Of a stretch of 33,579 nt of DNA, positions 6,228-31,007 are shown one piece after another (the first letter of the stretch is position 1; each line of letters starts with the position of its first letter). A program made the translations under genes and the position numbers. Source of the stretch: Chrysochromulina tobinii (lineage: Eukaryota); contig JWZX01003120.1 of the NCBI GenBank assembly GCA_001275005.1, positions 1 through 33,579 on the forward strand, read 5' to 3'. The notes below the pieces were generated by a model. The model saw nothing but the letters and a program-made list of their open reading frames with translations, ran no database searches and was not told the DNA's origin.

Positions 6228-9200
6228 TTAGATGTTAGGCGGCCAATACTCATCCCAGAATCCGTTGTACGTGTTGGTCTGGAAACTAAAGAAGTGGTAC
6301 TTCTGCTTTGCGGTGATGGACATCGGGATGCGTTCCTTCTCATAATGAGCTGCCGCGGTTTTCTTGCCCTTCCCGCGGTCAGGCGATCCGTCATTGCCGC
6401 CTGACTTTTGAAAGAGCTGAGATGCCCAGGGAGGGGGCGGCTCGTGGTCTAAGTTGGCAATCGAGATGCCAAGGAGGTTGATCATCTTAATGGCCTGGCC
6501 GCGCAGCCAGGTGGCAGGTGAGCGCGCGAGCTCGAGGAGTGCATCACTCGCCCCCAGCTCGATCATGGTCCGCTTCGCGTCTGGATCGCGACAGAGGTTC
6601 GTGAGGCAAGCGGCTGCAAAGCCGCAGGTTTGGTCGTTGCCCCTCTGCAGCGCGTGTAGCAGTGGCGGCAGCCCGATGTACTCGATGATTTGCTTGTCGT
6701 AGATGCCGTCGGGCCCATCAGTCAGGCCCCACAGCGAGCACGCGGCGTGCCTCTGCGTCAAGACACGCGTGTCGGAGAGCAACGCGATCAAGGCCGGGAT
6801 ACCCCCTGCCTGCACAATCATCTTCTTGTTGTTGCCTCGTGACACGGCCAACGCAGAGAGGACCGAAGCCGCGTGCTCACGCGTGTCCGGCAACTTTGAG
6901 TGGATGAGCGTCACGAGGCTTGGAATGGCGCCAGCCTTGACGGTGGCCACGCGGTTATCACCATTAGAGGCCAGATGAAACAGAGCCCCTGCAGAGTACA
7001 TTTGAGCATTTTCCATGGGGCTACCGAGCAGCGCGACAAGCGGTTCGATACCACCTGCTCCAGCAATTATCGTCCTATTCTTCTCCAGGAGCGCAAGATG
7101 CCACAGAGCGCCGGCTGCATGCGTCTGCGCCTCTGGGGATGGGCAAGAGAGCATGGCAACCAGCGGCGGCACACCCTTCTCCGCCACGATGGTCTCCTTA
7201 TTCTCGGCGCCACGCGCAAGATCGCAGAGCACAGCAGCCGCTCGCTCCTGCGGCGTGTCGGTTCGCGCGCTTTTGCCGTCGCCCATCAGCCGGATGAGTG
7301 GTTGAATTGCTCCGTGGGCAGTGATGGCCGTCCGGTTGTCGGCGTTGCGCGAAGCGAGGACGGCAAGGGCAACCGCCGACTTCATTTGAGCTGAAGCGTT
7401 TCGCGTGTCGAGCACTTCCACAAGGTGGAAGATCACTCTGTCGCGTGATTCAACGTCATTAGAGGCAATGTTGAGCAGCGCGCCGACTGCGTGCTCTTGC
7501 GTTGCAACCGAGTCTGTGCCGAGCAGCGCCACAAGAGGGATGATGGCGCCCCCTTTCATGAGCGCGACCTGATTGTCCAGGTGATCACGCGCCAGCGACT
7601 CTATGGCTGCCGCCGCGTACTGCTGGGTGATCTCATTTGCGTCGGAGAGCAGCTCAACGAGGGGCGGAAGCCCTCCCGCCAAAGCAATGGCCGTCTGGTT
7701 CTCCTCGCACGCCGCAACGCGCCAAAGCGCCTTGGTCGCATACTGATACGTGATATGAGCTTTGCGCTTCAGGAGCTCGACTAAAGGCACGATGCCGTCC
7801 TCCTCGGTGATGGTCACCTGGATGACAATGTTATCCTTGGCGAGTGTGGCCAGCGCTAAGGCAGCCATATTGGCGTGTTTCATCGCCGTCACCGCAGCAC
7901 TTGACGGGCGTCCGCTACCAGTTAAGAGCTTGGTGCCGGCTGCCACCATGGAAATGAGCGGCGCGATTGCGCCTTCCTCGGCAATCTGAGATTGTGTGTC
8001 AGTACTGTCGAGTGCGATATCGGAAAGAGCCCGCGCTGCAACTTCCGGCGGTCCGAGGGTGGGATCAGCGAGCCACCCCACGAACGCTGGGATGGCTCCA
8101 GCTCTCGAAATGTCGAGCGCCGCCCCGGCACGCAGGGCGAGCTGGGCCAGAGCGTCGGCGGCGTGGACCTTGGCATCAGGGGTGCCCTCCAGAAGAAGGC
8201 GCACGAGCGGTTCGATGCCTTTCATCTTCCGAATGGCCTCAGCATTCGTGCCGATGGGGGCAAGCCAGGAGAGTACAGCCGCAGCATGCTCCTGTGCGGT
8301 CGGGCTGATCTTTCCGCCGACGAGAGCCGCAATGAGCGGCTTGATACCACCTGCCTGTACGACCGCTTCCTTCGCAGCCTGATTGGTGATCGACGAGAGC
8401 GACCACAGCGCATACTCCTGCGCCTCAACACGCCCGTCCTTGAGACCATCCTTCAGCAGATTGACGAGAGGTCCGCCGCCACCGGTACCGACGGCCTGCG
8501 CTTTCGTGGCCGACTTATCCTCGTCGGCAACCCCGCGCAGCGCCTCGGAGGCGCGCTGGCGCACAGACTCTGCTTCGGAGGCGAGCAGTTTGACGAGCTC
8601 CTGCGTCACAGTTGCTTTCTCTGCCTGTGATTTGAGCGAGATGAGCACCAGGCCCGCTGCCGCCATTTCCATCGACTTCTCGGACCCTGACTCGAGTTGC
8701 CGGACAAGCTCCGGGATGGCACCAGCCTTGGCGATGGCGCCGCGATTGTCGGGATTCGTGGCGAGATTGCGCAACAACTCCGTGACGTGCTCCTGCGCCA
8801 AGGCTGAGCCAGTCTTTATCAGGCGAACTAGATCCTGAGATACCGCCACCTGATTGGGGACGTTGTCGACCACGAGGGTCTGCAGGGCGCCGGCAGCTTG
8901 CGCCTTGGCGTCGTCCGTGCCACCGTCAAACAGATCGACAAGCGGCGTGATCCCTCCTGCGCTCGCAATCGCCACGCGGTTTGCTGAGGTCTCGGCGAGC
9001 GAGTGCAGGGCGGCTGCCACGGTCTCCTGTGCTTCTCGGCTGGCAGTCGAGAGCAATCCCACGAGAGGAACGATGCCACCCGCATGGGCGATGGCAATCT
9101 GGTTGGTACTGTGGCTGGCGAGGCTCGACAGAGCGCCCGCCACGTCGCGATGGACCTCTGGATGCCCTTTGAGCAGCGCAATCAGCAGCGGGATGCCACC

Positions 9201-12200
9201 CGTCTCCGCAATCACAATTTGATTTGGTAGATTGTTGACCGCCATAGACCAGATCGCAGAGGCCATCTCTTTCTGAACCTTAGCCGACTCCAGGGCCTTT
9301 GCCTCCAAAGCCAGACTTTTGTCTTCAACCGGCTCAGACGGGAGAATCGGGATTTCCCTGGTTCCTGTGCGCAACCTGAGTCTCGGAGGCTCCAGGGGCT
9401 TAGACTCCTCCATGGGCTTAGACTCCGGAGGCTTAGACTCCATGGGAACGCCACCTTCTCTGATGTCGAGCAAACTAACGAGGAGCTGGATACCTCCTGC
9501 TACTGCAATTGCATCTTGGTTCGAGGGGTGCGCGCGCGCTAGGCGCGAAATGCCACGCGCAGCCTTGGCAGAAGTTTGCTTGTCTGTTGAGCCGAGCAGC
9601 TCAACGATCAGCGTGGCAATCGAGGATTCATTCACCTTGTTGTCCAACGCCAAGGCTGCGAGCGCACCCGCGGATTGCTCCTGCGCTCGAGTGCTAGCCA
9701 GACCCAAACATGCCACAAGCGGTGCAATCCCACCCGCCTGAGCCACGGCCACCTGGTTCTCGTAGTGCTTCTTCGCGAGCGACATGAGGGCTGAGGATCC
9801 TTGCTCCTTGGCGTATTCGGATGTGTCCTCCTTTAAGAGGCCAACCAGCGGTGCAATACCTCCATCCGCAGCCAACTTATCCTGGTTTTTCCTATTGTCG
9901 AGCGCAAGCACGGCAAGAGCAGCCGCTGCCTCTGCACGAACCTCGTCGCTGATCGATGCACCCAGGAGACCGACGAGCTTGCCAATACCCATGAACTTCT
10001 CCACGGCATCCTGATTCTGAAGCATGTCTAAGCTGAGCGCCGCGATGGCGCCCGCCGCCTTTTTGCGAGCGAGGTTATGGTCTTCACCAAGCAAAGCCAC
10101 AAGGGGTTTGATAGCGCCGGCCTCTGCGATGAGCTTCTGCGTCTCCGGATTCCCTGCACTGAGACTGTGGAGCGCGCCTGCCGCCTCTGCCTTTGCATCT
10201 TGAGTGCCTTGGGTCAGGAGGGCAATGAGGGGTGCGACGGCGCTTTCATTAAGAATCACGTTGCGGTTGCGCTTGGAATGTCGGCCCATATCTGCGAGCA
10301 CCGTCGCCGCATGAGCCTGTCCGCTGGTCGAGTCTGATGTGAGCAGCGCCACCAGCGGTCGGATACCGCTGGCCGCCGAGATGGCGGCAACGTTCTCATC
10401 AGAGTCACCGGAAAGACGAGCAAGGACGGCGGCTGAAATCTCCTGCGCCTTCATTGATGTCTGGGCGCCTCCTCGCAGCTGAATAACAAGGCGAGAGATG
10501 GCACCAGCCTTTGAAATGGCAAATCGATTAACATCATCGTACGACAACGTAAGGAGCAGTTGCGTCACGTGCTCCTGTGCCTCGATCGATCCAGCCCCAA
10601 GGAGCGCCACGAGGCCACTTGCGATAGCCAACTGATTTGCAGGAGAGGCGAGAGAGAGAGTTGACAGCGCCTTTGCCGCTTCCTTTTTGACCTCAAGTAC
10701 GCCGTTACTCAAAAGGTTCACGAGGGGTGAGATGGCACCAGCATTGACGATGATTCCAGGCGAGCCTGGATGGTTTGCAGCCAAATCACAGACCGCATGA
10801 GCGGCTCGTCGCTGGGCGCCTGCGCTCTGGTTGCCCAGCAAGCCGACGAGATACTTTGCAATCTGAGCTTGATTTTCAGCGCTGTCGATGGCGAGACGAG
10901 CGAGCGCATCAGCCGCAAGGCTGTGCGCCTTCGGCGTCCCATCGTCCAGAACCGTGACAAGCGAAGGAACGCCGTTGAATTTAGCGATCTGCATCTGGTT
11001 GCCGGTGTCCAGTGCTAAATGCCACAGCGCTCCAGTGGCATTTTCCCGTGCCTGCGCCGTGCCACTGCTGAGTAATGCAATGAGGGGTTGGATGCCTCCA
11101 GCCTCGGCAATTTGCTCAAGGTACGGCGAGCCGAAGTCATCTTCGTCCTCCTTCTTTTGCTTCTCCTTCTTCTCCTTCTCGGACGGAGGGTTCGCCGCTT
11201 CAGCGGCAGCGGCTTCAGCAGCGACCTTCGCTAGAATGTCAGCGTACTCGGCCGCCTCAGCATGGAAATGCTTGGCTTTGAGTGCATTCCTCTTTCCTGC
11301 CGCCGCAAGTTTCTTCTGCTGCTCGACCCACTCCGCAATTGCGCCACGCCCAAGATCCATCAAGCCGGCGGCCGCGTATTCTTGCGCCTTGGGTGATCCG
11401 CTCTTGACAAGCATGACGAGATCAGGTATCGCACCGCAGTTGATAAGCGCCATCTGGTTGCTGTTCTGTTCAGCCAAGTGCCATATGGCACGCGCACCGT
11501 GCTCCTGGCCAAGTGGCGTCCCCGATCGAATGAAGGCAAGCAACGGAGGGATTCCACCATCACCAATGATTAAGTCCTGCATGTTGAAATTGTCGTGAGC
11601 AATGTCAGCCAAGGCCGCCGATGCATGCTCTTGCATGGCACTGCGAAGGGTAGACTCTGGTGGTAGAGGTCCACCGCCCTTGTCCTTCTCGTCAATGACG
11701 TGAGGCGGCATAATCCAAGTTTTCTTCTTCTTGATTTCGGTAGTCTTGATCGAATTATCGAACAGGTTGGAGCTATCAAGCAACGCAATGAGCCGCTGCA
11801 AACCGCCCACGGTGTGGATCACTGCACGCCGCGCCGCGCAGCCGTTGATCATATCTTCGGGTCTGATGTCCTCCACCAGAGCCTTTCGACGTTTGCGAAT
11901 ATTTCGAGCTCTCTCACTGTTGTCCTCTGGATCGATCCACTCGTCCTCCATGTCCACGTCTTCGCGACTTATGTGAGCGATCGCACGTGCCGCAGTCTCC
12001 GGCGTGCCAACCGTCGAAGAATCCATCAGGTGCACCAGAGGCTCTATGCCGCCGGCACTAGCGATCACGTCGCGGGTCTTAGATACGAGTGCAATCTCAG
12101 CAAGCGCTGAGGCTGCTTGCTTCTGCGCACCGGGCGATGCGTGGCTGAGCAGCTTGACCAGGGGCTTAATGCCACCAGTCTCCGCGATGTCCATGGCCAC

Positions 12201-15200
12201 TGCCGCGTTGGATTGCGCAAGTCGGACCATGACGAACGCCGATAATTCTGGTAGGATATCACCCTCAGCAGCCAGCATGCTGACCATTGGCTTGAAGCAT
12301 CCTGCCTCGACGATTAGCGGATGGTTCTCCTCCTGCGAGGCCAGGTGCCAGATGGCGCGGGTAGCATGCTCCTGCGCGGCAGGTGTGCTCCGCTTCATGA
12401 GTGCGACTAGCGGTGGAATCGCGTCAGACTTTGCAATTAGCTGTTGCGTGGTAGTATTATTCTGCGCCAGGCAGAACATGGCGTGCGCCGCGTACGCCTG
12501 AACCTTGCCTGACGCGGCCTGGAGACACTGAATGAGCGGCGGGATCCCGCCAATCTTGGCAACGGCAACCTGATTCGAATGATGATCATTGAAAAAGGAC
12601 GAGCACGTCATCAGCACGCGCGTGGCTTTCTCAGCTGCTTTTGCTTGCGACGATCCTAGCAAGCCTACCAGACGCTTGGCGATGAGCTGCCGATTGTCTG
12701 GATGTTTGAAGGCGAGTGCCGCAAGCCCACCTGCAATACACATTTGCGACTTTTCGCTATCGGATGTGATAAGCAGGCCAACAAGTGGGTCGATGCCACC
12801 GAGCTTTGCGATTGTGTCCTTGTTAGGCGCATTGTCAGTCGAGAGCGCCCACAGTGCCGAAGCTGACTGATCTTTGGTCTCCGCAGAACCTTCACGCACG
12901 AGGGCGCACAATGGCGCGACTGCACCTGTTTTTGCAATGGCTGACTGATTGGGCTGGTTGCCACGCGCCAAGTTGGCTAGCGCACCTGCGGCGTTTGCTT
13001 GCATCTGAGCTGATGGGGAGCCGAGCATCGCAACCAGTGGAGCAATCGCGCCTTCGGCGGCGATGGCTTCCTGGTTCTTCTTATTGCCCTTAGCCATCTC
13101 CTTCACAGCCTCAGCGGCGAGCGTGCAAAGCTGGGATGATGGCCGAATCCTTCATCGTGGCACCCGAAAATCCGAGCAGCACGTTCACCAGCTTAGGGAT
13201 GCCGCCAGCCCTAGCAATCTGGCTTTGGTTCTCTTTAGACCTACGACAAAGCTGCTTGAGCGCACCGACTGCGTTCTCCTTGGCTTTGGGGCTAGAGTGT
13301 CGGTCGGCGTCGAGCAGGGCGAGGAGCGGCACGATGCCATTGGCGTCGACAATCGTCTTGCGGTTGTCCTCTGACTCGCGAGCGAGGTTGGCGAGTGCTG
13401 CGGCGGCCTGCTCCTGAGCTGCGTTGCCAGAATCTTGGAGCATGTCGACCAACTTCTTGATAATCTGCACGCGATTGCTGGTTTCAATCGACAGTCGCAC
13501 CAGTGCACCCTCGGCGTGCTCTCTTGATCGTGGGTTGGGGCAGCCGAGCAGCATCACGAGCCAACCGATGCCGTCCGCCTCTGTGATTCCGAGGCGGTTA
13601 CGTTCGTGATCAGCGAGTGCGAAGAGGGCACCTGCAGCCTCCTCCTGCGCTTCTAGGCCCTCTTTGCCATCGAGGAGCGCGACGAGCGGCGCGATCGCGC
13701 CCGCCTCCGCGATTGCAGTCTGAGTCGCCTCGTGCTCCTTGGCCAGGCGTGCGAGCGCCATCGAAACGAACTTCTTGGTGTGGTGTCCATCGTCCTCGAG
13801 GAGGAGCACGAGTGGACGGATACCACCCATACCGACAATCTCGTCGCGGGCCGCGGTGTCGACTGCCAGATCGGCGAGGGCCGCGGCAGCGTTCTGTCTC
13901 ACAAGCTCGGAGGACGATGGGCCAGGAACGAGCTGCCGAATAAGCGGCTTGATGCCGCCTTCCTTAGTGATCTGCGACCGCGTGTCATCGTTGTTGTGCG
14001 CAAGCTTGGCCAGAGCAGCTGCCGCCTCCTCTCGGTTTCTCACGCGATAATCGTCGAGCTGTTTGATGAGCGGCGTCACCCCGCCGGCACTGGCGACGAC
14101 GCCTTGAATGGGACCGCAGATTGAGAGGCTCAGCGACCACAGTGCATAGTCCTTTGCCTCAGGGATGCCCGCCTTGAGAAGATCGACGACAGGCTCGGGC
14201 TCGCCTGCATCAGCGATCGTTTGGTGTGAGGATGGATTCTCGGCGCGAATCGTCTGTAGCACTTGCACAGCACGCGTTTGCCCATCTTTCGTCCCTAGGG
14301 ACAACAGCTCGATGAGCAGCCGCGTAATCTGTATCAGGTTGTCTTGGTTCTCGAACCCGATGCTTGCGAGAGCCTTGGCGGCGTGCATCACCGCCAAACC
14401 TTCGCCAAGGCCAAGGAGCTCCACGAGAGGCTGGATGGCCGACGCTCCGGCGATGGAGATTTTGATCTTGGGGTCCTCAGACATCGACCAAAGTGCGCCC
14501 GCCACGTGAGATTTCACCTCAGCGTGTTGGCTGTTCTTGATGAGGCCTGCGAGCTGGGAGATGCCGCCATGGTCAACGATCGACGTCTGGATGCTGTGGT
14601 TAGAGCGTGAGACTTCTGCGAGTGCGAATGCCGCCTGCGTCTGCACGTCTGGACTAGAGCTGAGGCCGAGGTGGGGGATGATAATCTTGACCCCACCCAA
14701 CCTCGCGATAAAATCCTGATTCTCACGGTTGTCGTGTGCGAGTTGTGCGAGGGCCCCCATCCCACGTGCCTGCGCGGCAGGGCTGCGCGACGCAACCAGC
14801 GAGAGCAGCGGACTGATGCCACCGGCTTTGGCGACAGAGTCTTGCACCTCTTTGTTATGCCACGACATTTCTGCGATAGCAGCTGCTGCTTTCACCTGAG
14901 CGTCGGTGTTGACTCCGTTGAGCAATGACAGGAGCGGTGCAATGCCTCCTGCGGCACTGATCTCGGTTTGGATGGCTGGATTCTTCCGGGCGAGTTGCGC
15001 CAGCGCGTGTGCTGCAGGCATTTGAGCCTTTCCGACAGACAGCAAATTAAGCAATAGCTGGATCGCGCCCGCCGCTGCGATGGCGTCCTGTCCTGCCACC
15101 TTGTCGAAGGAGGCGATGTTAGCGAGTCCCTTTGCAGCCGATGCCTGTGCGACAACGGATCCGCCCTTGATCATGGCGACTAATGGGGTTATGCACCCTG

Positions 15201-15786
15201 CGTCGGTCAACATCCTTTGGTGCCCGATGTCATCATCGATCGCAGCAAGGGCTGAGGCAGCCTGTGGACGCACGCACAATCACCAGCAGTCACGGCGCAG
15301 GTCAGATGTGAGTTGGGAGCGGCAGGCTGCTGAGACACTGAGGTGCAAGCAGGCTGGAGTCGTTTATCTCAGGCTGGAGTCGTTTATCTCGAGGCGTTGC
15401 CCGCTCACCTGCTCCTGAGCCTTGGAGCTGCCCGTCTTCAGGAGCTTCACAAGCGGCAAAAGAGCGCCCGCCTCCACGATGGCAGCTTGATGGCTCACCT
15501 TGTGTTGCGCGATCTCGCTCAGCGCACTGCAGGCTGACGTCTGTGCGTCCGTACTGCCAGACGACAATACACGGACCAGGGGGCCGACGGCTCCACAAGT
15601 AACGAGCGCGTCTGCGTGCTCGCGATGGCCTTGCTCCGCGAGGCTCTTGAGCATCGCTGCGCCACCCTCGACAATGCTGCTGTTAGGATCGGAGAGTTTC
15701 TTCACGAGGTCTTTGATCAGAGTTGGCACATCTCCAGCTTTGGCAATATCCTGAGCGGTGATGCGAGTATTTCCTTTACGGACCAT
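6228..15786 (-). CDS. Giant armadillo (ARM) repeat protein, Vac8-like repeats, ~3,136 aa; join(15786..15409, 15261..6228) with a 1-nt frameshift at ~13134
   Basis: Dozens of ARM repeats (GGIPPLVxLL...AQExAAxALxxLA). Exon 1 ends KAQEQ|GTGAG, and intron 15408-15262 ends CCACAG|GCT, which rebuilds KAQEQ-AASALAAI. The ORFs 13111-15279 and 6228-13106 join by deleting one base of the GGG at 13133-13135, giving DSAII-QLCTLAAEAVKEMAKGNKKNQ. Confidence 0.9.
15262..15408 (-). other. Spliceosomal intron (147 nt, GT-AG, phase 0) of the ARM gene, containing a 20-bp tandem duplication
   Basis: Donor GTGAGC and acceptor CCACAG; splicing restores an ARM helix; aggctggagtcgtttatctc x2 at 15351-15390. Confidence 0.85.
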
Positions 15787-16222
15787 GCGAACGAGCGGCT
15801 GACCAAGCTCGTGAGCACCCGCGAGGGGACCACCCCGTCCAGCTCCAGGAGCGAGCGAGAGACGAGGTCCAAAGTCGTTTTCAATACTGTACTTCGATCG
15901 CGCGCCGTCGTGGCCGCACGCGTAACGAGCCTACTGAAGGAAGAAATCAGTCAAACATAGTAAGCTGTAAGGGTGGTCCAGAGGTGTGGCTACGTGAGTT
16001 CCAACCCCCTTTTGCGCACGTCGCCCGGACGCGCGGACGCAGAGACGCCCGCCGCGCCGTGCCTCTCCAACGGATGCCAGTAGTGAAGTCTAAACTAAAC
16101 AGGCCACCAGATCATTACACAATGCGCAATCGGGACACTTGCCCGATTAGGGAGAGGCCCGTCGCCCCGCGACGCTCCAAGACGCTTCAGAGCGGCCCCG
16201 CGCGCAATACTGCACGAGGAAA

Positions 16223-18383: not shown

Positions 18384-18703
18384 AGCGAGTACGTGTTCCA
18401 GCCCCCTTGCGGCCTCAACACTACTTCAACGCTTGGTGTGCTCGACCAAGTGCAGAGGTGCCATGACCTCAGCCCAACCATGGGCTACTCGTCACTGCTC
18501 TCGAGCACAAACCATAACGACGGAGCGCGCGCTTGGCGTGGGCACGCATGTGTGTGTCATTAGAATCTTGTTCCGCGCGGCGGCTCGATTGCTGCCGAAT
18601 GGTGTGTATCATATCATGCGTTTAGAGTGCTTGCACAAGAGCTAGTGTAGTAGTGGATGCCCGTGTATCAGAAATTTGGCTGTTTTATACAGGGTAACAG
18701 GCA

Positions 18704-18931
18704 CGCGTGAGACCAGGATGGTCTCACCCCTTTAAGTGAGGGAATACACACCACCAAGTGTCGGCGGCATGCCTGGCATGCATGCGGGCTGTGTGAAGGT
18801 TGTTTCCTAATTTGTGTTTGACAGAAACCGTGGAAGCGCACTCCGCTCTCCCCGTCAACTTTGACGTGGCCGAGTCGATCGCACGGCCAACAAGGGGCTG
18901 CGGCGTTCAGTGGAACCCACAGTGTCAAGCG
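18704..18931 (+). repeat. 5' LTR (228 bp)
   Basis: CGCGTGAGACC...CAGTGTCAAGCG; aligns with 25843-26071. Confidence 0.88.
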
Positions 18932-18947
18932 TGGTAGCTACGTGGAG
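18932..18947 (+). promoter_or_regulatory. Primer-binding site (TGGTAGCTACG...), probably for initiator tRNA-Met
   Basis: Begins with TGG directly after the 5' LTR. TGGTAGC is complementary to the ...GCUACCA 3' end typical of eukaryotic tRNAiMet. The full match length cannot be checked without the host tRNA. Confidence 0.7.
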
Positions 18948-18953
18948 CTAAAA

Positions 18954-21900
18954 ATGGCTCGCCAATTCAATTCAGGAGTCGACCTGGACAAGCAGGCCGT
19001 CTCAACACCGAGGCGCAGTGGTGGGCAACTGACCCCAACCACTCAATCCACAATGCGAGTGGATGCACGGCGCACAATGCGCAGTGGCGCAGGCGAGCGG
19101 AGTCATGAACCCTCGTCATCTTCGCGTACGCTCGATACTCGACATGTGCAAGTGGACAAATCACTGGCACTCGGGGGCCTCAAGGGCTCCGGCAAGTCGA
19201 TGCCGAGCCCCGGTGCTGTCACCGATGCTCCCAAGGGGCACCAGTTGGTGACGGCCTATGAAGAGGAGCCGCAAGGGCCCTTCAAGATGAGCATCAACAC
19301 GCTCTACCAAACGACACCAATGATCTTCTACACGTTCGCGTGCGTATCTGGTCTCCTCAACATCGGAAGCCTCCTCGTGAACATGCCAGGCGTGCGCCAG
19401 AAGGTGCATGACCTGCGCTGCAAGATCATGGAGTATCTGGTGCGCAAGCAACGTGCATCGAGCAGCCAAGCGCTCGTGCTCGTGCTGAAGCTAGCTGGAT
19501 GGATGATCGTGTCCGCCACGACTGCTGCTCGCCTCAAACATGCTGCGCGACGCGCCGGCCTGCTCTCGCTTTTGAGCGATGTGCCGAGCATGCATGCCGT
19601 CCAACGTGCCCTCAAGTTCGACGACCAGATTGAGGCGCCAGATGTTCTGGAATCGGAGGCCGATTCGACACGCTCCGAACGAGAGTCCGAGAGTGATGCT
19701 GACGAGCATGCCGAACCGGCCACAGATTGGGACACGTTCTGGACGCGCAAGCCGACGCGCGACATGATCCGCACGCTCTCCTCGCAAGAAGTGGAATCCA
19801 ACAAGACGGATCTGACGGTCGCGCGCCTCGACGAGTGGATGCTCAAGTTCATGACGTTCGCTCGGCGCCGTTACCCACAGTTCGGCGAGCTGCTGGAAAT
19901 TGTGTGGACGCTTGCGGACCTCGAGGAGGCCACTTCGCTCGTCACCACTTCAGTGCTTGCGAACGATGCGAACCTGTGGGGCGCGTCCGCGCTCATGTCC
20001 GTCATTGATGTGACGAAGCCCGCCGGCAAAGTCTTCGAGACGGCGATGCTCGATGCAGAGCGTGCCATCGCTGGCACCATGTCCTCGGGCATCGAGATCG
20101 CAGTACGGATTGCTAAGTTGCTCAAGGATCGCCACACGGGTGATGAGGAGGCTGACTATCTCAAGTTCGAGGCCAAGCAGTACCTCAAGCTTGGCCAGGA
20201 CGAGAACTCCATTCGCATCGCGTTCGGCATGATCAAGTCCGACCTCTCCATCTGCCCTAAGCGCATCCGGGAGGCCCCGCATGCGTACCTTCGCTGGCTT
20301 CTCAAGAAGGCGCCGACGGAGATTACCAAGAAGTGCAAGGAGATTGAGCACCAGATCAACGTGGCTGAGCGCCGCCAAGTCGAGCCCATGTTCAACAGCG
20401 AGCTGCTCACCGTCGAAGTTCTCACCTACGAGATGATCGAGATGATCTCGGCGGCTTCGAAGGAGAACCAGATCTCGATCGTCGAGGTGGCGGCCGCTGA
20501 CAAAAAGCGCAAGCTCGCTGCGGACCGCGTCAAGATGTCTAAGAGCCCGCCGTGCGCCAACTGCGGCAGCGCTGAACATGGCTGGGGCGACTGCAAGGCA
20601 ACGACTCTTTGCGGCCTCAAATTCTGCCAGTGCGCGCGGAGCATGGCATGCTGGGTGGAAGCGGACGTGATGCCGACCAAGGACGAGCTCAAGACGGCGC
20701 AAGGGCGCAATCTTCCGGACTCGCTCATCAACAAGCTCAAGGAGACCCGCAAAGGGAAAAACAAACAGGTCTCCGCTGTGGAGATGCTCGATGCTCTCGG
20801 CACCACGACGATGCCCGATGCCCAAACTGATGGCATGCTCGGCCTCGCACTCGTTGACCTGCCGACGCCACTGATCGCGCGGATCTTTGAGCTCGTTCAG
20901 CCTACGCTCGATTCCACGCCTTCGGCCTTTGACCTCGCCACGCTGTGTCATGCCTTCAAAGCGGCTACTGGTGAGTTCATCGAGATGTCCTTCGTGGCGG
21001 ACGATGAGCGCATTGCGCTTGAACGCCAAGAGGCTCGCATCAGCGCCATCGAGGGCTCGGCCGTGCTCGAGGCGAGCGGAGTTGAGCGTGACTATAGCAT
21101 GCAATCTCCAACCTCAGTTACCAGCGATCTTGCAAACCATCGCGCCCAGCTGCCCTGGATGTCACTCGGCCTCCTCGAATGCCTCGCCATCCACTTCCAA
21201 TCGTACGTCCGCATGCAACTCGCCAAGAAGCGCGTGCGTGCTGTGCGCTCTGCACGCCTGCCCAAGCATCCGCAGGAATGCACGCAGATGAGCGCGCCAA
21301 TCGAGACGGAGGTGTGCAGCGCCAGCGTCACGGTCACACGATCGCTCATCGGTGTACCACGGCCGGCAGGACCCGTCTTCGATGGCGAGTATGCTCTGGG
21401 AGTCTGCTGCCGCGAGGTGCACACGCACACGCCCAAGTGCATTCGGCCGCGTGCTCCGACCTCGGAAGACCTCGTGCTCACCATGGTGCACGGCGCCGAA
21501 TGTGAGATCAGCCTTGCCGATCGTCACAGCGTGCCCAAAGGCATGCTCGAAGTGCAGATCGATGGCGGGGCCAATACATGCCTCATCGTCAGCCCCCTGC
21601 TCCGATCCGTGTGCCACGTTAAGCCAGGCACCTCGGGTTCTCTCGGACTCGCAGGAGCAAGCAGCATCCTCGGCCATCAGGGTGAATGCACCTTGACTCT
21701 GTATGGCGGTGCCCACGATGGGACGGCGCCGGTGGCGACCGGCGTGCTGCACGGCGTGAGTGTGGCTGCGGGCAGACGCGACCTCCTCGGCGTTTCGTGC
21801 ATCTGGACGGCGGCACGCATCGCCGTCCTTACGGAACCATGGCTGCTCGCCGTGCACCCGGCCACAGGCCGTGCAGGCCGACTCATTGCCTGGAACGGCC

Positions 21901-24900
21901 TGTACTTTCTCCATGCGGCTCTGGAGTCTGATGGCATCCGTATCATCCTCGATCGGCAGCTCAGACCGCTGGACCTGTCTAGCATGATCGAGTGCTGTGC
22001 GGTCGACGTCACGGCGCACCACACTTATGCCCTGTGGGCTGCTCGGCTCCTCGTCGACGCTGCTGCCCTCAGAAAGCACGTGGGCACGTCGTACGCGATC
22101 GATATCAAGTCCGTGCCGCCGGCGGCGGCGCGCTTCCTCGACACGTGCATGATTCGCGCGTCTACGCGGATGCGCAAACTGCCTCCAATGGAGCGCGCGC
22201 CTGCTGTGAGCCGACCGGTCACGATCGGCGAAAGCTTTCAACTCGACGGCTTCGGGCATGTGTCGTGCAAGGTCGTCGGAGGCAAGGAGACATACCAATG
22301 GCTGGCTCTCGATAGCGTCTCAGACTATGCGCACGAGATGCTGACGGCCAGCTCGGGTCAAGAGTCCCTCTTTGCGTTCCTCGACATCGTGCATGCATAC
22401 GAGACACGCCTCAAGCACTGCCCCAAAGAGCTGCGCTTCGATGCCTGCCCCGTTTGGGCCAACGAGAACGTCAACCTCTTCAAGCAGGCGATCGCCGCTC
22501 GCTACAAGTGCATCGCGATCATCGCAGCCGGAGGAGATCACAACGTCATCCCGAAGCTGGAGGCGGCCCAAGATCCCTTTACGCGCATGGCGGAGGACAT
22601 GCTGCAGCGGGCGCACAAGGAGAAGCCATTCTTCCTCCGCGCGCGTGCCTATGCAGTCCAAGTGCGCAACGACAAGTGCGCCTACGACCAGAAGGCGACT
22701 CGATTCCATCGGCACCATGCAGCACCGTCGGACGTCACGCACTACATCTTCGGTACGCTGTGCGCGGTCCTCAAGGATGGCCACAACTCGCAGCGCGCTC
22801 CTGTGGGCTCGGCCGAGCGCACCGACAACGCGCTCCTGATCGGTTACGAGCCCCTAGCTCGCAAGCGCATGCTCCTCAAGGTGGACACGCAGCAGATCAT
22901 CTACCGCAAGGACGTGCAGCCGCTCAACGAGATGGTGCTCGCGCTCGTGGGCATCCCCTCGGGAGGCGACCTCGCCACGACCGCGGTGCAGACCGATGAT
23001 CCTGGCGAGCTGGCACCCCTGCTCGCGCCAGTGCAGCCGGTGCAGCCTGTGCCTGCGCCGATCATCATTCGCGCGGCCTACGACCCGATCCCGAACGGCA
23101 CCAAGATCGAGATGGGCTTTCATGACACCAAGTCCGGCGAGCTCCGCTACTATGAGGCGACCGTGCGTGGCTCGACGGTCCTTCCAACGGGCAAATGCAT
23201 GACAGACCTCGCCTGGACTGACCCGTCCTGGGATGAGGACAAGCGCTGGCAGGGCAAGCTGTTCGACCTCGCGTCCCAATACACGCCGTGGCGTCTGCCC
23301 AAGCCGACTGCCCCGCCTGCCCTGGCGGTCCGAACGGCGCCAATTCGCGCATCGGCTCGCCTTGCTAAGCCGGTGACTGCCGCTCTCAGCGCTGCGCTCG
23401 AGACGCGCAAGACGAGCGCGACTCAGATCGCCGTGTGCAACGCGATCATCTTCCAAGCCTTCGGAGATGCTCTCGATCTGCACGTGAGTTCCCTCGAGGA
23501 GCTTGACGCCGCGCGGCAGCACATCAGCGACCTTGAAAGCAGCATGGCTCAAGGGGATCCGTACGCTGTGACCGGCCTCGACGAAGTCGCGCCCCTCGAG
23601 TGCAACGGACTGACCCTGGAGGCCTCCAAGGTGCTCAAGAACGTCGTGGAACTCACCGCCGCGGACGGCTCGCCGTACACGCTCGTCGTGCCCAAAGGCG
23701 CCCTCGCCGGGCTGCCTGACGAGGTGGAATGGGGCCTCGCCGATGCCCTCGGGCATGAGTCCGTCCTGTCTCACCCTCTCAATCGGATGGTGAAGCGCAA
23801 GGATGCCAAGGCCACCGGCGCTGTCATCGCACCGTGCGTGGTGCAACGCAGCATCAAGAAGGACCCGGCGACCAACGTCCTCATCACCCGCAAGACGCGC
23901 ATCTGTGCCGACGGCGCTCGCCTGAAGAGGATCATGCTCTCGCAGGGTAAGGAGGATTACGCCCCGACGCACGCGGTCATCTCGGACGACCTCCAGTTCA
24001 AGATGGCACTTGCGACGGCGGCCGCTGGCGACATCCAGGATGCCGACGGCAAGCTGCTCTCGCCGCTCAAGCAGGATTTCCCTCTCGACGGCACCGAGGA
24101 GTCCCTCATGAAGGAGGCCCTCCTCATCGATCAGGCGCTGCACGACCGCCTTGCCGCCGATTCGACGCTTCGCATCGTCCCGCGATCGACGGCAAGCTCT
24201 GATTTCAAGAACGCCTACGTGAAGGCGAAGCGCTTGCGCCCAGTTGGCTTCCTCGACACGGTCACGCCCATGTTCGATGACGAAGGCGACCGCCTGTGCT
24301 ACGAACTCGGTGCTCCGATCTGGGGTGAGGCGCCCGCCGGAAATGAGTGGGAGCAAGATCGCAACGGCAAGATGCGGGCGGCCGGCCTCACGGAGAGCCT
24401 CGAAGTGCCCGGCCTTTGGTACATCGTCGACGCTGCCGTGGACAGCCGCCTCGCGATCATCACCAACGTCGACGACCTCTTCTACACTGAGACGGGCAAC
24501 CGCAACTACGTGCTCACCAACCGCGTCATCAAGTCCTTCAAGGGGGCCTACGGCGAGGACCAGATCACGGTCAAGTACAAGCCCACCTCCTGGAAGGGAT
24601 ACAAGATCGACTGGTCCAAGGATGGGTCTGTTGTCACCATCTCCATGGCTGCCCATGCCGTGGCCCTCGCGCTTGACTGGGTGCCCGAGCTTCTCGACCC
24701 GAGCGTGCCCACGCCGAGTGACATCCTCACGGGCATGAAGCTTCAGGAGGCGTGCGATCGCCTCACCATGCAGGACCCGCGACCCCTCAAGATGAGCCCT
24801 GACGAGAAGGCCACCCAGCAGATCTGCGGTGGCACCAAGTACATCGAGCAGGGCTGCATGCCACGCATGACGCTCATGCAGCACCGCCTCTCGTGCGTCG

Positions 24901-25571
24901 CCTCCGGGGCTGTGCAGCCCCTCGGCAAGCAGGTAGCGCGCTCGCTCGTGGCCTGCATCTACAAGCACCGGCACGAGGGCATCACGTATGGCGGCAACCT
25001 CAACCTTCGCAAGACGATCAAGGGCGGCATGTACGCGCAGCTCGATCTTGCCGACGGCGCTCCCTCCGACATCGAGGTGCACGGCGATGCGACGGTCGAC
25101 GATCGCTCTGTCTACGCGGCTGCAGTCACCTGCAACGGCGGCGCTGTGCTGCACATGGTCAAGAAGCTAAGCACCGCCTCCATCATCAACGATGAGTCCT
25201 CGTGCGAGAATGAAAGCGTCGCGACCAGCCGTTGCTCGCACTTTGCTGTGTACGCCCGAGCGGTCGCGACCGCCTTTGGCATGCCCCCGACGGCGCCGAC
25301 CATCGTTGGCACGGACAACTCGGCTAACCTCACGCTCAGCGCGGGTTCGGCCACGCCCGGACGCGCGAAGCACGCCCTGCGCAGGTGGGCGGCAATTCGC
25401 ATGCGAGTCGCCAGCGGCGCGTGCCGCGTCGTCAAAGTCGATACTGACTCCATGCCGGTCGACTTCATGACAAAGCACAAGGGCCGCAAGCTCATCGACG
25501 CGTCGGTCGCGTATCTCACCAACTCTCGCAACCGCGTCGAGTCCGACGCGGGCGAGGTGGAGGGCGCTTGA
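18954..25571 (+). CDS. Copia gag-pol polyprotein (2,205 aa from ATG 18954)
   Basis: Zinc knuckle CANCGSAEHGWGDC (20553-20594); protease VQIDGGANT (D at 21561); integrase D/D/E at QLD 22245, RFD 22440 and KLE 22560; RT motifs KTRICADG, SDFKNAY, PIWGEAPAGNEW and NVDDL (24465-24476); RNase H HGDA, SSCENES, TDNSA and DSMPVDFMTK. Confidence 0.93.
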   Translation: MARQFNSGVDLDKQAVSTPRRSGGQLTPTTQSTMRVDARRTMRSGAGERSHEPSSSSRTLDTRHVQVDKSLALGGLKGSGKSMPSPGAVTDAPKGHQLVTAYEEEPQGPFKMSINTLYQTTPMIFYTFACVSGLLNIGSLLVNMPGVRQKVHDLRCKIMEYLVRKQRASSSQALVLVLKLAGWMIVSATTAARLKHAARRAGLLSLLSDVPSMHAVQRALKFDDQIEAPDVLESEADSTRSERESESDADEHAEPATDWDTFWTRKPTRDMIRTLSSQEVESNKTDLTVARLDEWMLKFMTFARRRYPQFGELLEIVWTLADLEEATSLVTTSVLANDANLWGASALMSVIDVTKPAGKVFETAMLDAERAIAGTMSSGIEIAVRIAKLLKDRHTGDEEADYLKFEAKQYLKLGQDENSIRIAFGMIKSDLSICPKRIREAPHAYLRWLLKKAPTEITKKCKEIEHQINVAERRQVEPMFNSELLTVEVLTYEMIEMISAASKENQISIVEVAAADKKRKLAADRVKMSKSPPCANCGSAEHGWGDCKATTLCGLKFCQCARSMACWVEADVMPTKDELKTAQGRNLPDSLINKLKETRKGKNKQVSAVEMLDALGTTTMPDAQTDGMLGLALVDLPTPLIARIFELVQPTLDSTPSAFDLATLCHAFKAATGEFIEMSFVADDERIALERQEARISAIEGSAVLEASGVERDYSMQSPTSVTSDLANHRAQLPWMSLGLLECLAIHFQSYVRMQLAKKRVRAVRSARLPKHPQECTQMSAPIETEVCSASVTVTRSLIGVPRPAGPVFDGEYALGVCCREVHTHTPKCIRPRAPTSEDLVLTMVHGAECEISLADRHSVPKGMLEVQIDGGANTCLIVSPLLRSVCHVKPGTSGSLGLAGASSILGHQGECTLTLYGGAHDGTAPVATGVLHGVSVAAGRRDLLGVSCIWTAARIAVLTEPWLLAVHPATGRAGRLIAWNGLYFLHAALESDGIRIILDRQLRPLDLSSMIECCAVDVTAHHTYALWAARLLVDAAALRKHVGTSYAIDIKSVPPAAARFLDTCMIRASTRMRKLPPMERAPAVSRPVTIGESFQLDGFGHVSCKVVGGKETYQWLALDSVSDYAHEMLTASSGQESLFAFLDIVHAYETRLKHCPKELRFDACPVWANENVNLFKQAIAARYKCIAIIAAGGDHNVIPKLEAAQDPFTRMAEDMLQRAHKEKPFFLRARAYAVQVRNDKCAYDQKATRFHRHHAAPSDVTHYIFGTLCAVLKDGHNSQRAPVGSAERTDNALLIGYEPLARKRMLLKVDTQQIIYRKDVQPLNEMVLALVGIPSGGDLATTAVQTDDPGELAPLLAPVQPVQPVPAPIIIRAAYDPIPNGTKIEMGFHDTKSGELRYYEATVRGSTVLPTGKCMTDLAWTDPSWDEDKRWQGKLFDLASQYTPWRLPKPTAPPALAVRTAPIRASARLAKPVTAALSAALETRKTSATQIAVCNAIIFQAFGDALDLHVSSLEELDAARQHISDLESSMAQGDPYAVTGLDEVAPLECNGLTLEASKVLKNVVELTAADGSPYTLVVPKGALAGLPDEVEWGLADALGHESVLSHPLNRMVKRKDAKATGAVIAPCVVQRSIKKDPATNVLITRKTRICADGARLKRIMLSQGKEDYAPTHAVISDDLQFKMALATAAAGDIQDADGKLLSPLKQDFPLDGTEESLMKEALLIDQALHDRLAADSTLRIVPRSTASSDFKNAYVKAKRLRPVGFLDTVTPMFDDEGDRLCYELGAPIWGEAPAGNEWEQDRNGKMRAAGLTESLEVPGLWYIVDAAVDSRLAIITNVDDLFYTETGNRNYVLTNRVIKSFKGAYGEDQITVKYKPTSWKGYKIDWSKDGSVVTISMAAHAVALALDWVPELLDPSVPTPSDILTGMKLQEACDRLTMQDPRPLKMSPDEKATQQICGGTKYIEQGCMPRMTLMQHRLSCVASGAVQPLGKQVARSLVACIYKHRHEGITYGGNLNLRKTIKGGMYAQLDLADGAPSDIEVHGDATVDDRSVYAAAVTCNGGAVLHMVKKLSTASIINDESSCENESVATSRCSHFAVYARAVATAFGMPPTAPTIVGTDNSANLTLSAGSATPGRAKHALRRWAAIRMRVASGACRVVKVDTDSMPVDFMTKHKGRKLIDASVAYLTNSRNRVESDAGEVEGA

Positions 25572-25589
25572 GCGGTACAGGGCCGTCAC

Positions 25590-25604
25590 ATTGGGGGGGA
25601 CGCG
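25590..25604 (+). promoter_or_regulatory. Upstream copy of the PPT + LTR-start motif (ATTGGGGGGGACGCG)
   Basis: 15-bp identity with 25832-25846. Confidence 0.75.
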
Positions 25605-25715
25605 GTGCACCGAAGCACTGCCGTACCTACAAGAGCTCGTGCACACGGCAAAACATCGAGCGGGCCTCTGGGCCATGCGCTTGAAAGCGACGTCGGTGAC
25701 GGGCTCGGGAACAGA

Positions 25716-25798
25716 CGCCTAGGGACCGCTGAAGTACCAGGCGACATCGCAACAGGTCGCCTCGGGACCACTGAGGTACCAGGCGACATCGCAACAGG
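25716..25798. repeat. 42-bp tandem repeat x2 between the pol stop and the 3' LTR
   Basis: cgcct(a/c)gggacc(g/a)ctga(a/g)gtaccaggcgacatcgcaacagg at 25716 and 25758. Confidence 0.9.
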
Positions 25799-25831
25799 GA
25801 ACGACAATGCCAACGCCATCAAGGACGTCGG

Positions 25832-25842
25832 ATTGGGGGGGA
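25832..25842 (+). promoter_or_regulatory. Polypurine tract (G7A) adjacent to the 3' LTR
   Basis: ATTGGGGGGGA directly precedes the CGCGTGAG LTR start. Confidence 0.8.
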
Positions 25843-26071
25843 CGCGTGAGACCGGGATGGTCTCACCCCTCTACGTGAGGGAATACACACCGCAAGTGTC
25901 GGCGGCATGCCTGGCATGCATGCGGGTTTGTCGGAAGGTGTTTCCTAATTTGTGTTTGACAAAGCTGTGGAGCAAAAGCCCGCCGCACCCCGCGTCCGCA
26001 TCGACGCGGTCAGGCCGACCGTGCACCCGATCAGGGGCTGCAGCGACCAGTGGGATCCGCAGTGTCAAGCG
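25843..26071 (+). repeat. 3' LTR (229 bp)
   Basis: CGCGTGAGACC...CAGTGTCAAGCG; similarity to the 5' LTR stops after AAGCG. Confidence 0.88.
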
Positions 26072-26466
26072 GCTAAAGGTGTTGAGCCCTGTAGTGTACT
26101 AGACTTAGCAAGACTTTGTTCGGAAAAAGGTGGGCAACCGGCAAGAGCTAAGCGCGACGAACTTGACCGCGGAGACCTGAGACCTTCTGAGTCCAGGCCC
26201 ACATCGCATAGATACATAGTTAGGGTCCCTACACCGAGGTAACAATCGTGTCTCAGTCTTAGGAGTCTGTTCTGATCCAGATCGAGGATCCTACTTCCTA
26301 CCGGTACCGCGATTGCCGCGGTCTTCTTGCGCAGCGACGGGGCAGACTCGAAGACCGCACATCGAGCATCGTGGCAAACACTGCTGGTGATTGTGCCCGC
26401 CACGGCGCGAGAATGCCAGTGTCTGATTGAGATACCGAGAAGCGCAGACGAAGACCGGGGGGTGGC

Positions 26467-29565: not shown

Positions 29566-31007
29566 AGGGCCGCAGCCTCGTCGTCTGTCAACGTGAAGGC
29601 GAGCGCCTCGATCGCCCCCAGCCGCCCGGCGGACGAAGCACCCACGGACACGGGGGGCGCGCTTTCCTGCCCGACACGCGCCGCGCCGCCGGCCGGTGGT
29701 GGCAGCGGCACCCGAGATTCGCTCCGAGATTCGCTCCGAGATTCGCTCCGAGATTCGCCCGCGCGCGAGAGAGTGAGGTCGAAGCTGCTGCTGGTATTGA
29801 CGCGAGCGTCGGCCTCGGCCACCGCCCGGTCGGTGAGGGCGTCGTGCGCGTGCAAGATGACCTCGAGGGCGATGCGCTGCGTGTGCACAGGGTAACTCCC
29901 GAATAACGTCAGGAGGGGCTGCAGCTCCGGCTCCAGCTCCGCCACGCCGCCGCCGCCGCCTCCGCCGCCGCCGCCGCCTCCGCCGCCGCCTCCGCCGCGC
30001 TTGGACTGATGGGGCGCGGAGCCGGCGGCCGCCGCCTGCTTCTCCGCCTGCGCCCGCCAGCGCCCAAGCTCGCCCAGCAGCCCTTCATTCGCCATCTGGA
30101 GCGTCAGAGAGCGAGCACGAGCCGATGACGCATCTTGCTGGGCGGTGCGCAGCTGCTGCGCGAGCGCGGCGTTCTCCTTTTGGAGACGCTGGCACTGGGC
30201 CTCGAGCGGGTGCCGCTGGCCACCCATCGCCTCGCGCGCCGCCACGTGTAGGCTCACCTCGGCCTCGAGGGATTCCACCCGATGCGATAGCTCCCCCACG
30301 CGCGCCTGCGACGATGCGCGCGCCTGCTGTGCCTCACGTAGACTCTCGTTGAGCTCGAGCCACTGCGAGTGCCAGCGCTGGAGCTCGAACTGGAGCCGCT
30401 GCGACATCGAGAGCGTCGTCGCGCACGCCTGCGCCAGCCGGCTGCGGATGCGCCCGATCAGCGTGCACAGCGCGGGCGAGTAAAAGTGCGCGAGCCGCTC
30501 CGTCTCGGAGAGCCCAATGTCCCAGATGCGCGCCTCCTCGAGGGTGCACCAGATGTCGTAGATGCACATTTGGAGCACGCCCCACCGCGCCGCGCCGAGC
30601 GGGAAGCTCGGCTTGTTCGCGTCGAGCCGTTGGCGCCACTCTTTGAGCATCGCTCCGAGCGTCGCCGCGAGGATCGATATGTCCTTCTCGCCGTCGGGAC
30701 GCTGCGAGGGGAAGACGAGCCGGCCGGCCGCATCGTGCACGTGAAAGTTAGCCGGGATGTGTGATGGCGGCGGCGGACCCGAGGACGCCGCGGCTGAGGG
30801 CCTGGACGGAGGCTGCGGCGGCATCGGCGGCATCTTGTTGGCGTCGTTGTGCGCCGCGGCAACGTCGGAGACCGTCGGATCGGGATGGCTAGGCTGCACC
30901 GTGTTGAGTCGCCCCACGGGTCGCGGCAGCTGCATCAGCTGCCGGCGCTGCGCAGGCGGGAAGGTCGTCGCGCCGCGCATGCCGATCTGCTCAACAACGA
31001 CAGTCAT
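29520..31007 (-). CDS. Hypothetical coiled-coil protein, possibly axonemal dynein light chain-domain-like
   Basis: 495-aa ORF with long heptad-rich helices, poly-Gly and SESR repeats. IWDIGLSETERLAHFYSPALCTLIGRIR weakly resembles the p28/Ax_dynein_light core; this is a tentative call. Confidence 0.65.
   Translation of the reverse strand: MTVVVEQIGMRGATTFPPAQRRQLMQLPRPVGRLNTVQPSHPDPTVSDVAAAHNDANKMPPMPPQPPSRPSAAASSGPPPPSHIPANFHVHDAAGRLVFPSQRPDGEKDISILAATLGAMLKEWRQRLDANKPSFPLGAARWGVLQMCIYDIWCTLEEARIWDIGLSETERLAHFYSPALCTLIGRIRSRLAQACATTLSMSQRLQFELQRWHSQWLELNESLREAQQARASSQARVGELSHRVESLEAEVSLHVAAREAMGGQRHPLEAQCQRLQKENAALAQQLRTAQQDASSARARSLTLQMANEGLLGELGRWRAQAEKQAAAAGSAPHQSKRGGGGGGGGGGGGGGGGGVAELEPELQPLLTLFGSYPVHTQRIALEVILHAHDALTDRAVAEADARVNTSSSFDLTLSRAGESRSESRSESRSESRVPLPPPAGGAARVGQESAPPVSVGASSAGRLGAIEALAFTLTDDEAAALVSALSRRETGRALT

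Follow-up and report, generated by a model that had tools for sequence, protein, structure and literature searches.

For the integrases of retroviruses and of elements with long terminal repeats (LTRs), the terminal CA is regarded as almost invariable, and a copia-type element that seems to end in CG...CG and to lack a target-site duplication (TSD) raises the question of whether this element is integrated by its integrase in the usual way. Such an element is located at positions 18704-26071 of contig JWZX01003120.1, a stretch of 33,579 nucleotides that is analysed as a whole and termed the window. An earlier note on this DNA had placed the element at 18699-26076, a span that includes five flanking bases too many on each side, and had offered either a copia lineage that joins CG ends or an integrase-independent or recombinant insertion as its origin. 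The analysis supports, with good confidence, a divergent Ty1/copia element with CG...CG LTRs, of which the DDE integrase likely joins CG-3' ends with a 5-base stagger, and of which the TSD is missing from the window likely because the assembly joins two half-insertions.

The 5' LTR (228 bp, 18704-18931) and the 3' LTR (229 bp, 25843-26071) are both on the + strand, as are all features of the element given below, and both read CGCGTG...CAAGCG. Both begin with CGCGTGAGAC and finish with GTGTCAAGCG, which form an imperfect inverted repeat (8/10), and the internal TG and CA are each located 4 nt inside the LTR ends, as the earlier note had described. Other copies of the family were gathered by scanning metagenome contigs for a pattern of 19 LTR bases that excludes the termini. 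The scan gives 48 loci (termed L with a number), of which 34 are assigned to the family by the bases inside the LTR, and 14 are discarded as chance matches because they show no LTR similarity outside the pattern. Right ends are under-sampled, because the search pattern is located at the LTR start. At all 13 distinct left target junctions of these loci, CGCGTG follows variable DNA, and at all 4 distinct right target junctions the target starts directly after CAAGCG. Canonical TG...CA termini are thus found at none of the 17 junctions, all of which end at CG. If the ends were TG...CA, each target site would have to supply CGCG and AGCG of its own. Loose contig ends in two of the four sequencing runs, of which about a half and a quarter were covered, also agree with CG termini. 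The CG...CG ends of the element are real.

The base preceding CGCG is C at six, A at four, T at two and G at one of the 13 left junctions. This result indicates that the leading A of the window copy is the last target base, so that the assignment of the outer ACGCG and AGCG to the element in the earlier note stands for CGCG and AGCG, which are present at all junctions, but not for the leading A. In each of the seven loci that include the junction of the G7 run with the 3' LTR, a single A separates the two. A 2-bp 'GC' duplication, considered for an element starting with A, is rejected because the leading A belongs to the target instead.

The window copy has no TSD of 4-6 bp at its CG boundaries, where the left target flank is AGGCA (18699-18703) and the right target flank is GCTAA (26072-26076). 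The absence of a TSD had been claimed from this copy and holds for it, but apparently not for the family, which yields two 5-bp matches among 52 left-right pairs, when only 0.05 are expected (P about 0.001). Neither 3-base nor 6-base matches are found among the 52 pairs. In the CACTA pair (L050/L044), both LTRs are identical over 229 nt and are of a type found in no other locus, and in the TCAGC pair (L019/L020), a type A LTR, as defined below, is present on both sides. These results suggest that the family likely makes ordinary 5-bp TSDs and that the absence of a TSD is most likely a feature of the assembled window copy, not of the element. AGGCA is predicted to be one 5-bp TSD copy of the left-hand insertion, and GCTAA one TSD copy from a different insertion, although the partner of neither has been found. 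The AGGCA junction recurs in L018 and, with no differences, in a 13.8-kb contig of sequencing run X2, and the GCTAA junction recurs in L014, L023 and a run X2 contig. Multiple CG...CG copies with 5-bp TSDs had been proposed as a check of a new terminus type; CG is found at every junction, but the TSDs are found in two cross-contig pairs only. The 13 left and 4 right junctions at CG and these two pairs together support a copia lineage that joins CG ends. A possible third pair, CGGTA (L052/L055), derives from a loose end of run X2 at 18937; its first base is not displayed, and it is therefore not counted. Of the 15 distinct 5-base flank words, 11 have A or T in the middle, which is a weak hint of a target preference centred on the 5-base stagger.

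The two LTRs of the window copy share 80% identity (186/232), a point overlooked in the earlier note, with approximately 92% identity over the first 120 columns and approximately 68% over the remainder, and they belong to two types, A (5') and B (3'). One reverse-transcription cycle yields identical LTRs, and the window copy, which has LTRs of 80% identity and an intact open reading frame (ORF), is therefore regarded as two insertions joined. The 5' LTR is identical over its full length to the LTRs of L018, L019, L020/L021, L039 and L042 (four other full LTR copies), and a type A LTR, identical over the bases covered, is present in at least seven insertions. This identity indicates that the family has spread very recently, so that mis-joins from collapsed repeats are likely. 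The window shows no differences from L020 at 18704-23905, matches neither L020 nor L023 at 23906-24632, where the haplotype switches from L020 to L023, and coincides with L023 from 24633 onwards. The right flank of the window copy is also that of L014 and L023, which lead to it through different internal sequences, and L020 joins the unmatched flanks AATAC (left) and TCAGC (right), though a left partner of TCAGC exists in L019/L031. The join in the window is likely an assembly mis-join rather than a real recombination.

The single intact gag-pol ORF (2205 aa, 18954-25571), whose sequence combines two or more copies, contains a Gag zinc knuckle CX2CX4HX4C (residue 534; 20553-20594), an aspartic protease (PR) motif DGGANT (residue 870; 21561-21578), for which the retropepsin profile matches are weak and alone not significant (E 0.14-0.4), an integrase (IN; residues 1098-1203; 21981-23003), the reverse transcriptase (RT) core motifs SDFKNAY...NVDDLF (residues 1749-1838; 24198-24482) and the RNase H (RH) motifs D...E...DN...D (residues 2043-2168; 25080-25475), which are copia-like by eye and include three acidic columns that are invariant in the alignment. 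The domain order GAG-PR-IN-RT-RH is that of Ty1/copia, with the integrase confirmed by its fold, and the element has direct LTRs with a primer-binding site (PBS) and a polypurine tract (PPT), as expected for Ty1/copia, though the LTRs are of differing types. Pfam gives no hits on the window polyprotein over its 2205 aa. RVT_2, the copia-type RT family, is detected in 14 of the 24 aligned sequences (best E 1e-12) without RVT_1, so that the copia-type RT is recognized in the relatives only and not in the window's own protein. Sequence searches against solved structures are uninformative. A search aimed at much longer fused forms gives none, which is weak evidence.

The integrase has the catalytic residues D1098, D1163 and E1203, which are conserved in 23, 25 and 22 of the 25 alignment rows, respectively. 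Its stretch is modelled by AlphaFold with a predicted local distance difference test score (pLDDT) of 86.5, and the top Foldseek matches of this model are the integrases of mouse mammary tumor virus (MMTV), Rous sarcoma virus (RSV) and prototype foamy virus (PFV), with E about 1e-10. The model suggests that the integrase has a retroviral DDE fold. A DIRS-like tyrosine recombinase is not indicated, because no recombinase family is matched and a DDE integrase fold is present instead. An HHCC zinc finger is typical of the N-terminal domain of canonical Ty1/copia integrases. It is found in none of the 22 rows that cover this region (the window and 21 relatives; the other 3 of the 25 rows are too short to score), and its places are occupied by W-A-A-R and D-S-D in most rows. 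The motif at the catalytic E is also altered, H-x-x-[VI]-[GP]-x-x-E-x-x-x-D, as compared with N-G-V-[AV]-E-R in two canonical-looking relatives. In intasome structures, the helix around the catalytic E contacts the DNA end. It is hypothesized that the altered helix and the missing zinc finger may be linked to the CG ends.

The PBS TGGTAGCTACGTGGAG (18932-18947) starts with TGG directly after the 5' LTR, without a spacer, as the earlier note had stated. Its primer is likely the initiator tRNA-Met (iMet), judging from tRNA architecture and from the A1:U72 pair, the hallmark of this tRNA; tRNA scans of the window and 21 loci gave no matching primer tRNA gene. Minus-strand synthesis would be primed by this tRNA at the PBS adjoining the CG of U5, and plus-strand synthesis would be primed at the PPT, which consists of G7 and one A ahead of the 3' LTR (25835-25842). 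Integrated copies begin and end precisely with CG, and the A that follows the G7 run does not enter the target with the element. The cDNA may be either blunt, as the earlier note had read it, with the A left on the primer, or trimmed by one base per end, with A removed before the first CG and T removed after the last; both fit equally. The integrase would then retain the penultimate C, take G in place of the terminal A, and produce the 5-bp TSD that is backed by the two cross-contig pairs. In a young multicopy family such as this, the left half of one insertion would be mis-joined to the right half of another upon assembly.

Several observations weigh against this explanation. Both TSD pairs are split over separate contigs, and a whole element with both TSD copies is present on no single contig. 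Eleven of the 13 left and two of the 4 right junctions, including both window junctions, are unpaired, and L038 (left ATACG) and L054 (right CAGCC) do not pair with each other, yet share an LTR variant, a result that calls for additional type B copies or additional mis-joins. A single 4-base match, CAGC (with about 0.2 expected by an estimate from the base frequencies), links discordant LTR types. An empty site is not found, and no flank matches the flank of another insertion. In the broken copy L011/L012/L025, which has a frameshifted ORF, the 5' LTR terminates in CA instead of CG on its inner side, which represents either decay or a trace of an ancestral state. Most loci share flanks across assemblies and are probably from one strain, so that the lineages are not independent. 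The mismatches of the window flanks and of L038 and L054 would be expected if the family made no fixed TSD, owing to integrase-independent or variable joining, and if the two matching pairs arose by chance. This possibility is very remote, because two 5-base matches are rarely obtained by chance at the P value given above, the LTR types are concordant in both pairs, all 17 junctions are base-precise and the DDE integrase is intact. The integrase-independent insertion suggested in the earlier note also finds no support, because the window ends are as precise as those of other copies and the two halves come from different copies.

A CG-ended family with 5-bp TSDs is also compatible with a real homologous recombination between a type A and a type B copy, by deletion or translocation, which would leave a hybrid with unmatched flanks. 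The private variants of the window at 23906-24632, which match neither L020 nor L023, and the intact hybrid ORF favour such an event, and recombinant copia copies without a TSD are reported from Phaeodactylum in the available text of PMC2806351. Real recombination is nevertheless rather unlikely, because the right flank is reached by a different internal route in each of three assemblies, at least two of which must be wrong, because L020 would be a second real recombinant among approximately 10 copies, and because no contig in the sequencing-run assemblies spans the element. For the recognition step only, the integrase may instead read the internal TG...CA and join 4 bases outward, the CG ends being an extension of ancestral TG...CA ends. 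In every intact LTR type compared, TG and CA occupy symmetric places, positions 5-6 counted from either end, and the end-binding helix and the zinc finger of the integrase are altered, both of which favour this alternative. But the symmetry comes with the 8/10 inverted repeat and requires no particular history, and the intasome geometry places the joined base beside the recognized dinucleotide. The CG ends of the Troyka elements, moreover, function without an internal TG...CA (CGCCA...TGGCG, in the part of Kojima 2025, PMC12440569, that is available). Outward joining is thus improbable. Direct joining of CG-3' ends, with a mis-join in the window, is preferred.

The only named close relative of the polyprotein is KOO30772.1 of Chrysochromulina tobinii, which shows 97% identity over the searched IN-RT-RH region, belongs to the same family as the window element and is annotated merely as 'polyprotein'. 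The host is inferred to be a haptophyte from this match. At E up to 0.001, a full HMMER search gives 699 clusters, and 311 of them remain at E up to 1e-10. The relatives include proteins at 81-85%, 52-57% and approximately 30% identity. Protein-based locus searches of viral and prokaryotic genome contigs find no relative; the LTR-end/PBS pattern gives seven matches in viral contigs, none of which blastn or tblastn relates to the element, and the LTR hairpin pattern occurs in no viral contig. In a tree of 61 RT-RH stretches, built by a quick method after near-duplicates were dropped and without named reference elements, the family falls in a deep radiation that has no name, and three copia proteins of more canonical appearance are placed elsewhere. 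It is tentatively proposed that the family may be part of an extensive, still nameless clade of copia elements in aquatic protists (the 311 clusters, at 50% identity and E up to 1e-10), in which the integrase lost HHCC and its end-binding helix was rewritten as the ends switched from CA-3' to CG-3'. If so, CG-ended LTR integration would have arisen in this clade a second time, independently of Troyka, and would have been missed by Pfam and by tools requiring TG...CA.

Other features of the family are as follows. By sequence folding, the LTR opens with two stem-loops at 18707-18742, GTGAGACC/GGTCTCAC and then CCC...GGG, in the LTR half that is best conserved between the types. A second G7 run followed by ACGCG (25593-25604) is located approximately 240 bp upstream of the PPT. 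A G7 or G8 run followed by (A)ACGCGG is retained at this upstream position in diverged subfamilies (window, L020, L044, L054, L014, L023 and L037) and is a possible candidate for a second plus-strand priming site. The stretch after this run is rejected as a relic LTR, because 484 and 451 of 500 shuffles score equally high. The 3' untranslated stretch of the element contains a unit of approximately 40 bases in two near-identical copies (approximately 25722-25799). In L020 (9567-9922) and L044 (1065-1489), the pol ORF extends approximately 115-140 aa past the window stop codon with a proline-rich, acidic sequence. L037 has a tandem PPT-LTR-PBS junction at 500-760 with the variant PBS TGGTATC, and this variant PBS behind a type B LTR end is also found in run X2. 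Among the damaged copies, L011/L012/L025 is truncated as well as frameshifted, L010 has an internal deletion that joins window position 18957 to 20643, and the LTR of the L013 group is cut after approximately 130 bases. The left flank of the AATAC insertion has an exact 281-base duplication (L020, 1012-1292 and 2304-2584), which is also present in L043. Elsewhere in the window, a very long armadillo-repeat coding region is located at 6228-15930 on the - strand (a 2307-aa frame and further frames upstream; Pfam Arm, E 2e-171), and ARAGORN calls a tRNA-Glu(CTC) at 30369-30443 on the - strand, in a GC-rich stretch with long open frames, where it may be a false call.

A recently amplified and intact copia family that combines CG joining and a 5-bp stagger with a zinc-finger-less integrase offers a natural system in which to study the encoding of end specificity. 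Because the family is invisible to Pfam, and LTR finders that require TG...CA would miss or mis-bound its copies, the LTR content of haptophytes may be undercounted. The missing TSD of the window copy is a caution on collapsed repeats, not new biology.

No paper describing a CG-ended copia element or the window family is found in the literature covered, to which most subscription journals and Repbase do not belong, and the available text on the transposable elements of Tisochrysis lutea gives no termini. Of the 26 diatom copia families termed CoDi (Maumus et al. 2009, PMC2806351), 3 are without TG/CA, and recombinant copies that lack a TSD are reported. CoDi and the window element are alike as microalgal Ty1/copia elements. 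The actual ends of the three CoDi families are not stated in the available text, so that a CG-ended copia may already be published among them. The non-TGCA Copia elements of plants (Tos17, AtRE1, TARE1 and lotus families) share with the window element the Copia order, short LTRs (approximately 270-320 bp on average in plants), non-canonical ends and, as far as the two pairs of the window family indicate, a 5-bp TSD as the norm. In the available text of the surveys (10.1101/137141; PMC9804982), their first base is always T, and the lotus copia elements finish in A or T, whereas in the window element both outer bases are changed, T to C and A to G, and a perfect inverted dinucleotide is kept.

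The closest resemblance in termini is to Troyka, and the following comparison refers to the available text of PMC12440569. Troyka and the window element are alike in CG...CG LTR termini, short LTRs (100-400 bp in Troyka), a single gag-pol ORF and aquatic hosts. In contrast, the domain order is RP-RT-RH-IN, the gypsy order, in Troyka, but PR-IN-RT-RH in the window element; the TSD is 3 bp in Troyka, but the window family gives 5-bp pairs and no three-base match; the terminal pentamers are CGCCA...TGGCG in Troyka, but CGCGT...AAGCG in the window element; the Gag knuckle is CX2CX8-10HX4C in Troyka, but CX2CX4HX4C in the window element; and Troyka is found only in metazoans, whereas the host of the window element is likely a haptophyte. 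The window element is thus not a member of Troyka, and the CG ends common to both are likely convergent. The two unrelated CG-ended groups can be compared directly. CG...CG termini are already known among LTR elements overall from Troyka, and within copia they are apparently an undescribed variant.

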